A stretch of 64,000 nucleotides of DNA from a phage. The position numbers and the translations under genes were made by a program. The notes under the pieces were generated by a model that saw only the letters and a list, made by a program, of their open reading frames with translations, had not been told where the DNA came from and searched no databases. Shown one piece after another: positions 39,256 through 52,894 of this stretch. Positions within the stretch are counted from its first letter, which is position 1, and each line of letters starts with the position of its first letter. Location of the stretch: the sequence record PZ295659.1; one strand, given 5' to 3'.

Positions 39256-39736
39256 TAAAAAGGTGATGATTCCCAAATTAGGGCTCAAACATTATAATCT
39301 TTTAAAGGACGTTAAAGGTCCTGACGAAAACATGAAAATCTTAGCTGATTCTATTTGTAAAAATATGAGTCCAGCAGATTTTGATTTTGCGTGTCTACAC
39401 ATATTGGAATTTAATAACAAACTTAAGTCTGAAGTTGAAAAAGATGGATTCACTTATAAACTAGATGACGTCTATGTATGCCAACGAACAGAATTCCAAT
39501 TTCAAGGTAATACTTTTTATTTTAGACCCCCAGGCAAATTTGAACAGTTCGCTACAATCAGTGAAATGCTATCAAATTGCTTAATAAAAGTTAATGACGA
39601 AGAGAAAGAAATTTCTTTCCTTGAGATGCCTGCTTTTGTAATCAAATGGGCAGAAGACCTTTCGACAACTATTGCTATTCCAGGCCCTAATGGTCCTATT
39701 AAGGGTATAGCAGAAATTATTGGATTGCTTGAATGA
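39203..39736 (+). CDS. 28: baseplate hub distal protein gp28
   Basis: 177 aa, same as T4. Confidence 0.88.
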
Positions 39737-49859: not shown

Positions 49860-50225
49860 TTAGATATCAAATTCGTTAAGAACTACATCAAAGATTGCTT
49901 CGAGATGTTCAGGTTTAGCTCGGTTGCTCAGGATGTGACGAATCCAAGTTTTAACCAGAAGTTTACGATTAACACCGTTCCAGCAAGGATGAGTACCTAA
50001 ATCACGTTGACGGAAATCGTCATCTAATGCAATTTTGAAGTTGGAACCTTCCATCGTGATTGAAACCGTGATGCCATTTTCAAATCGCATATAAACGTAA
50101 TTAGGAGTCATATACTGCTCAATTTCGCATACTGAACCGTTATTATGCTTCCATAAGCAAATTGTATCGATAGAACCAGCAATACCGTTAGAAACATATT
50201 TACGTTCGAAGTTGATGTAGTTCAT
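49860..50225 (-). CDS. hypothetical early protein (121 aa)
   Basis: early promoter + GGAGAATAAAATGAAC start context. Confidence 0.6.
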   Translation of the reverse strand: MNYINFERKYVSNGIAGSIDTICLWKHNNGSVCEIEQYMTPNYVYMRFENGITVSITMEGSNFKIALDDDFRQRDLGTHPCWNGVNRKLLVKTWIRHILSNRAKPEHLEAIFDVVLNEFDI

Positions 50226-50266
50226 TTTATTCTCCAGATGTTTAAGTTGTTTGTTGGTACAGGTCT

Positions 50267-50295
50267 ATAATAACAAAACCTGTACCAAAGTAAAC
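50267..50295 (-). promoter_or_regulatory. early promoter with inverted repeat (PeSL-like)
   Basis: GTTTAC-N17-TATTAT; IR TTGGTACAGG / CCTGTACCAA brackets the -10. Confidence 0.6.
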
Positions 50296-50299
50296 ATTT

Positions 50300-50671
50300 T
50301 TATTTGATTTTTGTCCACTTAGCTGAATCAATAACACCTTTTGCTTTAATCTTCTCGATTAATGACTCTGCACGATTTCTGGCATTTTCATACCATACAA
50401 CATCTTCAGAGTAACCTGTTTCTTCATCTTCGTAAGTTTTAGAACGAATACAACCATAAACTGTAGAATTCAGACGGTAAATTTCACCAGTGAAAAAGTT
50501 TTCGATTTCGATATGATAACAAAAATCGTCTGAAGGGCCATCAGGAGTTGTACAATAAACTACATCACCTTGAATCGAACGAACCATCCACTGTAACTCG
50601 TTAACAACTTGAGATTTATATCCATCGTGGTCACGGCATTTAATTGTAGCATTTAAATTGATAGTGTTCAT
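50300..50671 (-). CDS. hypothetical early protein (123 aa)
   Basis: early promoter + identical GGAGAATAAAATGAAC start context. Confidence 0.6.
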   Translation of the reverse strand: MNTINLNATIKCRDHDGYKSQVVNELQWMVRSIQGDVVYCTTPDGPSDDFCYHIEIENFFTGEIYRLNSTVYGCIRSKTYEDEETGYSEDVVWYENARNRAESLIEKIKAKGVIDSAKWTKIK

Positions 50672-50713
50672 TTTATTCTCCGGTTGTTTTTATTGATTAG
50701 GTGGTACAAGTCT

Positions 50714-50742
50714 ATAGTAACACATCCTACAGGAGAGTAAAC
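50714..50742 (-). promoter_or_regulatory. early promoter (GTTTAC-N17-TACTAT)
   Basis: motif. Confidence 0.6.
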
Positions 50743-50779
50743 ATCTTTTTTAAACTTTTTCTGCCCTAAACGCACAAAA

Positions 50780-50797
50780 GGGAGACCGAAGTCTCCC
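50780..50797 (-). terminator. UUCG hairpin GGGAGAC-UUCG-GUCUCCC (third identical copy)
   Basis: stem-loop plus U-tract. Confidence 0.65.
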
Positions 50798-50802
50798 TAA
50801 AA

Positions 50803-50982
50803 TTATGCAACAACCTTTCCAAAACGAGAAGCATCATCTCGAAGAACTGCACGTGCTCTGCGCATGATCTTCTCAACGGTTTGATTAATACGAGAGTTCG
50901 ACCCACGCTTGTATCCAGCGCGTTTAGAGGTACCATCAACTTTCTTTTCTACTGCTTTCTTTGCTTTAGCTTGTTTTGCCAT
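50803..50982 (-). CDS. small highly basic protein (59 aa)
   Basis: ATG ORF below track cutoff: MAKQAKAKKAVEKKVDGTSKRAGYKRGSNSRINQTVEKIMRRARAVLRDDASRFGKVVA; ends at terminator hairpin. Confidence 0.5.
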   Translation of the reverse strand: MAKQAKAKKAVEKKVDGTSKRAGYKRGSNSRINQTVEKIMRRARAVLRDDASRFGKVVA

Positions 50983-51251
50983 TATAAATTCTCTTTAAAT
51001 GAAAATGCAGGACTTATTGACATTGCCTGCCCAAGCCCTCAAGGGGAACATAGGTTTTTGGATATTTAACGACAGGATAACCATAAACCCGTCATCATAC
51101 CGACCACGACTTAGACAGATAACCTTTTTCTGACGCGTGATAGTACAAAATACATTCAAGAGGTACACCGTAAAATTGTCGGGGCGGTACTTCTAAAACA
51201 TATCGATTCGCAAATCGATAATCAGACAATTCGACGGCTCCTCGATTTAAC

Positions 51252-51500
51252 TTACTTCAGGGTAATAACAAAATGACGAACTGCTTTACGTGCTGCAGAA
51301 GCCAGAGGCTTAGCATATTTCAATTCATCTTTCTGAACCAGGATATCGCGAAGATCGGCTTGTGCTGGATTCAGATGTTTGAAATACTGTAAGATTTCAA
51401 GAGCTTCGGCTTCAACATCAATAGATGCGCCGTAATTGTCATGGCCATTATTCCATGCATGGCGTTGCAGTTCAAGAGCGTGTTGTAATTGTTTAATCAT
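51252..51500 (-). CDS. rIII: RIII lysis-inhibition accessory protein
   Basis: 82 aa, same as T4 rIII; late promoter upstream. Confidence 0.88.
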   Translation of the reverse strand: MIKQLQHALELQRHAWNNGHDNYGASIDVEAEALEILQYFKHLNPAQADLRDILVQKDELKYAKPLASAARKAVRHFVITLK

Positions 51501-51616
51501 TTTAAATTCTCAATTCGAGATAATACTTAGTAGCCACGTTCTTCTGAATTTCACTTTCTTTCGACAAGTCTCTCAGTTGTAGGCTACCGCTTAGAAGAGT
51601 GTTCTCTTCATATAGT

Positions 51617-51624
51617 TATTTATA
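51617..51624 (-). promoter_or_regulatory. late promoter TATAAATA (rIII)
   Basis: minus-strand TATAAATAACTATAT. Confidence 0.6.
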
Positions 51625-51957
51625 TCACTTATAAAGACATGGAATAGCTTTATAGTGGCATGTTACGAATTTCTGTTTAATTTCTTTAGGTTGTTTAAGA
51701 CCTAAAGCCACAAATGGATGTGGAACATTTCGAATTTGTCCAACCGGTAGTGGAGTCAAATCACCGACTTCAACAAAACCTTCAGGAACATCAGGACCTA
51801 CAGAATGAACTACACATAGTTCAGGAACTTCACCTTGAACACGTTTACCAATCACAAGTCCTGATTCTGTAACTTCTTCATCACCCGCTTGAGCGGGTTC
51901 AGAAACCAGAATGACATATTCACCAACAGCACGAATTGGGAGTTGTACTTCAGACAT
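51625..51957 (-). CDS. 31: gp31 co-chaperonin (GroES analogue for capsid folding)
   Basis: 110 aa, essentially identical to remembered T4 gp31. Confidence 0.95.
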
Positions 51958-51987
51958 CTTATTTCCTTGTTGTTTGACGATAGATTA

Positions 51988-52012
51988 ATAATACCATACT
52001 ATTCGTAAAGCA
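51988..52012 (-). promoter_or_regulatory. middle promoter for gene 31: MotA box TGCTTTA + 12 nt + TATTAT
   Basis: motif and spacing. Confidence 0.6.
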
Positions 52013-52014
52013 TA

Positions 52015-52323
52015 TTACATAAGAAGCAAACTTTCCACCGGAGTACCATCAACCGAAATTACTTTATCAAGGCGGAAAGAACGCCACTGACCTAACTTGG
52101 TGTCGAATGCTCGAACTGATTCACGAGGTTCATAACGAACTTCTGTTGCTGGATTGTTATTTTCATATTTGACTTCAAGTTCATCGCGCGAAGCAAACAT
52201 AGTGCGTACCTCGCCGTTAGCCTTTTCAAATACAACACAATGAACGCCTACAGATAGAATAGTTTTAATACGTTCACGAAGAACCATAGTTTCTTGTTCA
52301 GTTAAAATCATATTATTCACCAC
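52015..52323 (-). CDS. hypothetical protein (102 aa; 31.1/31.2 position)
   Basis: ORF between cd and 31. Confidence 0.6.
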   Translation of the reverse strand: MVNNMILTEQETMVLRERIKTILSVGVHCVVFEKANGEVRTMFASRDELEVKYENNNPATEVRYEPRESVRAFDTKLGQWRSFRLDKVISVDGTPVESLLLM

Positions 52324-52894
52324 AAAAGTTTCGGATTTGTTCCCAATTCAGAGAACGAAGATTATTACGAGAGTACTGAATTACTTCAATACCGGCTTGT
52401 TTTAGAATGTCTGCCCAATTTTCAGGAGATCTGTCATATAATTCTGCGTATACAACCTTTTTAATACCTGACTGCGTAATAGCTTTAGTGCAATCAGGAC
52501 ATGGAGAAAGCGTCGTATATAACGTAGCACCTTCAATAGAATTACCTTTACGAGCTGCAAACAAAATTGCATTCAATTCTGCATGGATTTCATTATTAGC
52601 AGACCATGCACTATGAGCGGCCCGATGTTCTTTAGCCAAAACAAAATTATCTGCCCGTCCAAATGCTGTAGTGCCTTCTTTATGTCCAGCAACGATGACC
52701 GGGCTTGGTTTATTCTTCAACCAACCGTTTTCGGATGCATGTTCGCAACAGTTTGTACCACCTGAAGGAGAGCCATTATAACCTGTAGAAATAATGCGTC
52801 CATCTTTTTCAATGACTGCGCCAACTTTCCATGAACAACATTTTGATTCTTGAGAAATCAGATATGCAATCTGAAGGTATGTGCTAGCTTTCAT
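52313..52894 (-). CDS. cd: dCMP deaminase
   Basis: 193 aa; zinc motifs HAELNA and PCPDC. Confidence 0.93.
   Translation of the reverse strand: MKASTYLQIAYLISQESKCCSWKVGAVIEKDGRIISTGYNGSPSGGTNCCEHASENGWLKNKPSPVIVAGHKEGTTAFGRADNFVLAKEHRAAHSAWSANNEIHAELNAILFAARKGNSIEGATLYTTLSPCPDCTKAITQSGIKKVVYAELYDRSPENWADILKQAGIEVIQYSRNNLRSLNWEQIRNFCGE

Follow-up and report, generated by a model that had tools for sequence, protein, structure and literature searches.

The DNA analyzed here was a window of 64,000 nucleotides (sequence record PZ295659.1) from a T4-type phage of the RB69-like group (Mosigvirus), for which phage SQ17 was the top database match at 99.4% identity. Genes on the minus strand of this window are ordered cd, 31.1, 31, rIII, a spacer, 30.9, a UUCG hairpin terminator, and 30.8. 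The features described below lie on this same strand, the rIII-sense strand, unless the plus strand is named. The spacer is a non-coding intercistronic interval of 269 nt at 50983-51251, located between rIII (51252-51500), which lies upstream in the same transcription unit, and gene 30.9 (50803-50982), which follows directly and encodes a very basic protein of 59 amino acids. A preliminary description of this DNA had given the same interval, and its limits were exact, running from the rIII stop codon to the 30.9 start codon. Just upstream of rIII is the T4-type late promoter motif TATAAATA (51617-51624), which we take to be a late promoter based on established knowledge of T4. After 30.9, a hairpin (GGGAGAC-UUCG-GUCUCCC, 50780-50797) followed by UUUUGU is a likely intrinsic terminator; it was missed by a simple terminator scan and carries a terminator annotation in phage PhAPEC2. 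Intergenic gaps in the window had a median of 9 bp by a crude gene call, and only seven were at least 100 bp. The rIII-30.9 gap was missing from those seven because the gene call counted a spurious GTG ORF within the spacer as a gene. The sole larger gap in the window (279 bp, 39454-39732) is free of ORFs and lies between divergent genes; therefore, the spacer is the longest co-directional gap in the window, and its description as unusually long was borne out.

The product of gene 30.9 matched phrog_1427, a family of unknown function, and carries the invariant motif KRxGYKRxxNxRI. No Pfam match and no PDB relative were found for this protein. Several deposited genomes, such as OR352942.1 and MZ868638.1, label 30.9 as a "1,4-alpha-glucan branching enzyme, GH-13-type". 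For a basic protein of 59 amino acids this label is implausible, and it looks like a propagated annotation error.

The spacer was matched in 774 phage records, T4 among them, and the match extended over at least 80% of the spacer length in 487 of these. The T4 counterpart is a gap of 244 bp at 130541-130784. Aligned nucleotide identity between the spacer of the window and those of five relatives was 90-97%. In the same five relatives rIII was 82-88% identical (53-73% at 4-fold degenerate sites), and identity of gene 30.9 went down to 73-77% in more distant pairs. Conservation is thus higher in the non-coding interval than in the genes on either side. RNA or regulatory annotation across the gap was absent in all five records inspected (RB69, PhAPEC2, HX01, TU01, and T4), and HX01 and TU01 annotate only small hypothetical ORFs there. 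The ORF content of the spacer differed from what had been stated. Contrary to the claim that neither strand has an ATG ORF of more than 20 codons, there is one of 44 codons on the plus strand (50999-51133) and one of 29 codons on the minus strand. Similarly, a minus-strand frame said to be open for 51 codons without a start codon is indeed open, but is actually a 57-codon GTG ORF at 50995-51168. The frame of none of these ORFs is conserved in relatives. Indels of 1 nt among close relatives (GACG-GG versus GACGAGG, and CCAAAAACC versus CCAAAACC) shift every candidate frame, an indel of 5 nt falls within a loop, and ORF lengths and C-termini vary among the window, RB69, T4, L006, L009, and L027 (L numbers denote the related sequences collected). 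No relative has an intact or longer gene at this position. Alignment to the rIII-30.9 interval of T4, which had been proposed as a check for a pseudogene remnant, found the T4 gap to be homologous and to hold no conserved ORF. A coding or pseudogene reading was rejected because reading frames are not conserved among relatives. The suggestion of a scar left by a deleted gene is likewise not supported, given the absence of an intact ORF in any relative, the frame-shifting 1-nt indels, and a spacer more conserved than rIII. We would advise annotators to make no more tiny-ORF calls in the rIII-30.9 interval.

Scans for transcription signals found no sigma-70 promoter-like site on either strand of 50983-51251 and no intrinsic terminator in the spacer. 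The hairpin designated D2 below would be weak as a terminator, having a 5-bp stem and a 14-nt loop followed by AUUUUCAUUU. By eye, the sense strand of the spacer contains neither a MotA box (TGCTT) nor TATAAATA. The TTGACA reported earlier on the plus strand was confirmed at 51017-51022; the promoter scan found no -10 partner for it, and it is the complement of the D2 hairpin loop, reading TTGGCA in T4. Also on the plus (antisense) strand, TATAAATT at 50983-50990 overlaps the 30.9 start codon and matches the T4 late-promoter motif at 7 of 8 positions. Judged by sequence, this site could drive an antisense late transcript across the spacer. Rfam searches by cmscan of 50000-52500, run with E up to 10, gave no hit within the spacer, and searches of eleven related loci (E up to 1) and of the L028 spacer (E up to 10) found nothing and nothing relevant, respectively. 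Minimum free energy (MFE) z-scores were -0.93 (not significant) for the sense strand and -2.37 for the plus strand; the folding program is blind to pseudoknots, and these scores are uninformative and do not favor the sense strand.

We aligned 60 spacers that were retrieved via rIII from viral and metagenome collections. The near-palindrome of the preliminary description exists, but its true position is 51201-51220, ten bases to the left of the 51211-51230 that had been given. Its sequence, TATCGATTCGCAAATCGATA, forms a perfect 8-bp stem with a 4-nt loop, and a stem as long occurred in 1.85% of 2000 dinucleotide shuffles. This palindrome is the apical hairpin, UAUCGAUU-UGCG-AAUCGAUA, of a larger structure that we designate module A, an irregular hairpin of 84 nt (51160-51243). 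Module A has four stacked helices, namely GAGG/CCUC, GCCGU/ACGGU, GAAUUGUC/GACAAUUU, and the apical hairpin, whose UGCG loop matches the UNCG pattern. The apical hairpin in T4 and most relatives is UAAUGAUU-UGCG-AAUCAUUA, so that two pairs differ at both positions, with a U-G intermediate seen in L003 and L026. Among 17 distinct sequences with 25 pairs each, 99.1% of the 425 pair cells were standard pairs, compared to 25-61% in slid controls, and 5 pairs were changed on both sides. The covariation score for module A was 0.145 versus 0.080 for shuffles, with 0 of 500 shuffles as good; because the spacer sequences are related, this and the other shuffle statistics given here overstate independence. 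G-U pairing is invariant at two positions and occurs at a third in 11 of the 17 sequences. Folding of the opposite strand would turn these pairs into A-C mismatches, and the fold is therefore placed on the rIII-sense RNA.

Module C (51046-51098) is an H-type pseudoknot. P1 pairs GACGGG (51088-51093) with CCUGUC (51071-51076) and is 5-6 bp with a bulged G. P2 pairs GGUU (51079-51082) with AACC (51053-51056). In general, P2 is formed by the hairpin loop pairing with a downstream AAC(C/U)nnn segment, and it is only 4 bp in the clade of the window. The linker, GUUAAAUAUCCAAAA, is conserved and A-rich with an invariant AAA...AAA. In 25 distinct sequences, aligned with MAFFT and with one unpaired linker A deleted from five of them to hold P2 in register, 83.4% of the cells were paired and 8 pairs were changed on both sides. 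The covariation score was 0.325 versus 0.131 for shuffles (0 of 500 as good), and slid controls scored 0.15 at most. The preliminary description had listed a small RNA among several options and had proposed covariation analysis across related phages; modules A and C were both clearly supported by that analysis. The part of the small-RNA option that stood is RNA structure, in that the palindrome caps an 84-nt hairpin that is conserved and shows compensatory changes, and the module C pseudoknot covaries.

The covariance model of C found a single copy in the window (65.5 bits) and copies in 55 of 65 related sources, among them a divergent clade absent from the seed alignment (24-29 bits). It also found a copy at L048:6796-6848 (minus strand, 64.5 bits), where it fills the gap between tRNA-Asp and tRNA-Pro. 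L048 is an unrelated, uncultured phage contig of 55 kb with a 12-tRNA array, a terminase gene, and a portal gene, and with no rIII or 30.9. Such a location marks module C as a self-contained and mobile RNA element. A degenerate pattern of C searched in 185,579 bacterial genomes gave 18 single matches, none with the pseudoknot pairing, and these matches are thus chance-like. The conserved unpaired nucleotides, in the linker of C and in the loop of D2, suggest recognition by a trans-acting factor.

The remaining elements of the spacer are smaller, and the evidence for modules M and D is qualitative, with less covariation support than for A and C. Module M (51103-51144) is a hairpin with an outer stem of AUCACG/CGUGGU and an inner stem of CAGA/UCUG. 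Compensatory variants were observed in L004 (AUCAUG/CAUGGU) and in L009 and L024 (CAGC/GCUG), and a mismatch was observed in L003; because the variants are few, support for M is weak to moderate. Module D1 (51036-51046) is a mini-hairpin, CCC-CUUGA-GGG, set in a recurring motif, GUA-CCCnnnnGGG-CUUG. Its stem is retained while loop and stem vary in sequence (CCCUUCGAGGG, CCCUAUGGGG, and CCUCUUAGAGG). The motif directly follows the rIII stop codon in L021, L024, L025, L031, L045, and L052. The window has one copy of D1, and no other copies of C or D1 were found within its 64 kb. In a metagenome contig of 1.5 kb (L073:648-675), D1 is fused directly to approximately codon 22 of 30.9; this junction reflects either loss of D2 together with the 30.9 start by deletion or a chimeric assembly. 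Module D2 (51007-51030) is a hairpin, GCAGG-(CAAUGUCAAUAAGU)-CCUGC, whose 14-nt loop is conserved. L027 and L030 keep this loop on a stem of ACUGG/CCAGU, and a G-U pair is seen in L007. In other clades the position is taken by different hairpins, with stems of GGGAGC/GCUCCC, GGGAAC/GUUCCC, GAGAG/CUCUC, or GUGGAG/CUCCAC. Finally, a weak hairpin, AUUUUC-AUUUAAA-GAGAAU (50988-51006), is predicted in the MFE fold over the Shine-Dalgarno region of 30.9. Other clades have an analogous pairing of (U)CUCC...GGAAG.

Comparison of the relatives revealed that their spacers are assembled in mosaic fashion from discrete modules, all of which read in the rIII sense. Between A and C, one of three allelic states is found: nothing (T4), module M (RB69 and the window), or a 140-nt module B (many others). 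Cassette order depends on clade, being either C-E-B-D or E-A-(M or B)-C-D, where E is a further module described below. Some phages have only D1-C and a terminator-like hairpin, which is GGCUCUA...UAGAGCUCUUUU in L024, L045, and L052. In the distant T4-type phages L037-L042 (positions ~1720-1760 of each), rIII overlaps or abuts the next gene, and both 30.9 and the spacer are absent. In L040, a 30.9-like gene of 44 aa lies 9 nt downstream of rIII. The absence of both 30.9 and the spacer from the distant phages makes the RNA modules and 30.9 look like one accessory insertion.

Module B, absent from the window, is an RNA of approximately 140 nt found between A and C in many relatives (for example, L022:1761-1895 and L028:1868-2002). 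It was present in 404 phage records, mostly at 94-100% identity, and the hosts of these T4-type phages were Klebsiella, Escherichia, Enterobacter, Citrobacter, Erwinia, and Edwardsiella. Eight helices make up its structure, among them a loop-loop pseudoknot (CGAUGG/CCAUCG) and a hairpin with a GNRA cap. Pairing was retained in 98.2% of cells, 19 pairs showed changes at both positions, and 0 of 500 shuffles matched it. Rfam had no match to B, and this RNA makes a strong candidate for a novel structured class.

Module E is a single ToxI-like unit that T4 and many relatives carry close behind rIII; it was located in T4 at 130749-130778 (L005:2250-2279, minus strand), at L006:1750-1782 and L028:1834-1864, and also in L052. 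A BLAST search with E matched 66 small plasmids of E. coli, Salmonella, Klebsiella, Yersinia, Pectobacterium, and Serratia, at several places in each record. The match in pNMEC-O75B is a 36-nt repeat present in 5.6 copies, AGGTGATTTGCTACCTTTAAGTGCAGCTAGAAATTC. Phage E units are identical to the 36-nt ToxI repeat at 25 of 36 positions (T4) to 32 of 36 (L006), and the matching ToxI repeat sits upstream of a ToxN/AbiQ toxin gene on E. coli plasmids. By sequence, module E is homologous to ToxI. The inner stem of E changes from UGC/GCA to CAC/GUG or CGC/GCG, which look compensatory by eye. No ToxI-like unit was found in the window by nhmmer with a ToxI/E profile. BLAST of the window spacer (A, M, C, and D), and of a composite of the non-E modules of relatives, against PLSDB plasmids and complete E. 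coli genomes returned nothing meaningful. In the papers searched, we found no description of the rIII-30.9 spacer and no mention of a ToxI-like unit in T4 or T4-type phages.

Taken together, the spacer is very probably a set of RNA structures maintained by selection on the sense strand. These form a chain of independently folding elements in the order A, M, C, D1, D2, and the ribosome-binding site hairpin. The spacer would be transcribed together with rIII, from the late promoter at 51617-51624 and from early or middle promoters further upstream, and transcription would end at the terminator after 30.9. The cassettes belong to a common pool, from which T-even-type phages assemble varying sets at this single site. 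E, as a single unit, and B are also members of the pool, and the window carries neither. As for what the cassettes do, we tentatively prefer the reading that they are autonomous folded RNAs, co-transcribed, possibly released as separate RNAs, and recognized by proteins. Modules C and A would then act as decoys or antitoxin-like ligands for RNA-binding or RNA-cleaving proteins of the host or the phage, and only D2 and the ribosome-binding site hairpin would work in cis, tuning translation of 30.9. This reading is favored because of the cassette behavior of the modules, the ToxI-like neighbor in relatives, the copy of C in a tRNA array, and the conserved unpaired nucleotides. Against it, A, M, C, and D have no counterpart in the bacterial sequences searched and are single-copy, and the window lacks E. 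The nonsignificant MFE z-score of the sense strand and the findings on phiTE and T4 described at the end of this account also weigh against it. Furthermore, in T4-type phages the RNA modules nearly always accompany 30.9, a co-occurrence that fits a cis role or a role as a partner of 30.9 as well.

The main rival is that the interval serves as a cis-acting leader or operator of 30.9, together with the rIII 3' UTR, and controls translation and stability of the 30.9 message. This is possible, though we hold it less likely than action of the cassettes as protein ligands, and it is favored by position and by co-occurrence with 30.9. The modules are directly upstream of 30.9, with D2 and the weak hairpin abutting or covering the Shine-Dalgarno region, the distant relatives without 30.9 have no spacer, and C is in nearly all 30.9 loci. 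The very basic gp30.9 with its invariant motif might bind C or D2 and repress its own synthesis, by analogy to gp32 at the gene 32 pseudoknot, an operator that is a T4 precedent for such control (PMC3014915). However, neither module order nor distance to the 30.9 start is conserved, as C ends approximately 70 nt upstream in the window and T4 and approximately 280 nt upstream in L028, where E and B intervene. The 30.9-like gene of L040 has no leader, C is also found within a tRNA array that lacks a neighboring 30.9, and presence or absence of cassettes between close relatives is atypical of an operator. Stable UNCG-type hairpins are an established theme of T4 intercistronic regions, and the hairpins could instead be RNA processing or stability signals. 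As such they would be barriers or entry sites for nucleases (host RNase E, G, or III, 3' exonucleases, or T4 RegB) that uncouple the rIII and 30.9 messages, and D1 would be a recurring cleavage or insulator motif between cassettes. The D1 motif does recur at cassette borders, GGAG is present at the foot of module A, and L024, L045, and L052 have the terminator-like hairpin cassette. We nevertheless consider this explanation unlikely as it leaves the pseudoknot, the conserved loops, and the 140-nt B of relatives unexplained, and the GGAG of module A is base-paired, a state in which RegB does not cut it (PMC3014915).

Two further explanations were considered. In one, the interval is functionless or acts as DNA, whether as a recombination hot spot, a leftover of PeSL-like exchange, or a palindromic site for a DNA-binding protein, and conservation reflects recent horizontal spread rather than selection. 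The locus is indeed mosaic and rich in indels, short shared motifs flank the cassettes, an apparent deletion in L073 joins D1 to the inside of 30.9, and PeSL-mediated shuffling is documented in T4-type phages (PMC2839356). Yet the spacer has no sigma-70 promoter and so is not a PeSL, compensatory changes and G-U pairs confined to one strand indicate selection at the RNA level, and conservation exceeds that of neighboring coding DNA across several genera, all of which makes this explanation quite improbable. Least probable of all, and barely credible given the data on frames, is that the spacer encodes a small protein, yields an antisense product, or is a decayed gene. Candidates would be the 57-codon GTG ORF or an MMT... 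ORF on the minus strand, or the 44-codon ATG ORF on the plus strand driven by TATAAATT, a 7-of-8 late promoter motif. Such ORFs do exist, and tiny hypothetical proteins are annotated here in some deposited genomes. However, their frames are shifted by 1-nt indels, their lengths and C-termini are variable, the plus-strand ATG has no Shine-Dalgarno sequence, and relatives have no longer intact gene.

Returning to the reading of the cassettes as protein-recognized RNAs, a broader proposal is that the rIII-30.9 interval is an undescribed accessory "RNA cassette island" of T-even phages that neutralizes RNA-dependent or RNA-cleaving host defenses in trans. The swappable A, C, E, and B, perhaps with gp30.9, would be the agents, and the targets would perhaps be such systems as type III toxins. 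We regard this proposal as rather doubtful, though if it is true, modules C and A of the window would be new classes of phage anti-defense RNA. T4 is one of the best-studied viruses. A review from 2010 noted that no T4 riboswitch or trans-acting regulatory RNA had been functionally characterized and that related genomes might yield candidates (PMC3014915). The present locus offers several such candidates, which have covariation support and occur in therapeutic and model phages with hundreds of sequenced genomes. Should the cassettes prove to be decoys, RNA-based anti-defense would be widened from the single case of the phiTE pseudo-ToxI to the whole T-even group and would provide handles for prediction of host range. 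If instead they regulate 30.9, they would constitute a new leader-RNA system beside a lysis-timing gene.

Several known systems bear comparison with this locus. The stable RNAs C and D of T4 (rnaC and rnaD; species 1 and 2 of the tRNA cluster) are also phage-encoded structured RNAs of unknown function, and module C, like these RNAs, can occupy a phage tRNA array (L048). The spacer modules differ from them in locus and have no sequence similarity to them. PeSLs (PMC2839356) resemble the spacer in being small intergenic stem-loop cassettes at sites of modular shuffling in plastic genome regions, whereas the spacer lacks their sigma-70-like promoter, has a far more elaborate 84-nt hairpin and pseudoknot, and has covariation of the RNA type. 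With the pseudoknot of the T4 and RB69 gene 32 mRNA, a translational operator, module C shares its H-type fold, its place in a T4-type gene leader, and its conservation among T-even phages. It differs from that operator in that it lies from approximately 70 to approximately 280 nt from the 30.9 start, is one of several shuffled cassettes, is found also in a tRNA array, and is unrelated in sequence.

Type III antitoxins provide the remaining comparisons. Mimicry of ToxI is known from phage phiTE, in which 1.5 pseudo-ToxI repeats gave the phage no protection (PMC3475682). The spacer resembles the phiTE pseudo-ToxI and the ToxI of toxIN in being phage non-coding RNA, intergenic and on the sense strand, at a locus that in relatives holds E. 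It differs in that the window has no ToxI-like unit, none of the antitoxins searched matches its modules in sequence, and these modules are single-copy with no tandem repeat by inspection, unlike the tandem repeats of 34-45 nt of type III antitoxins. E. coli toxIN continues to restrict T4 despite its E unit, and T4 requires the protein TifA to escape (PMC9391042); TifA is the known anti-ToxIN factor of T4 (PMC9391042, PMC10853763). The antitoxins CptI and TenpI are H-type pseudoknots in which an A-rich stretch or conserved adenosines contact stem 1 (PMC12283969). Module C, compared with them by description, is likewise an H-type pseudoknot with a conserved A-rich stretch by stem 1, a likeness that falls short of establishing membership in that group.
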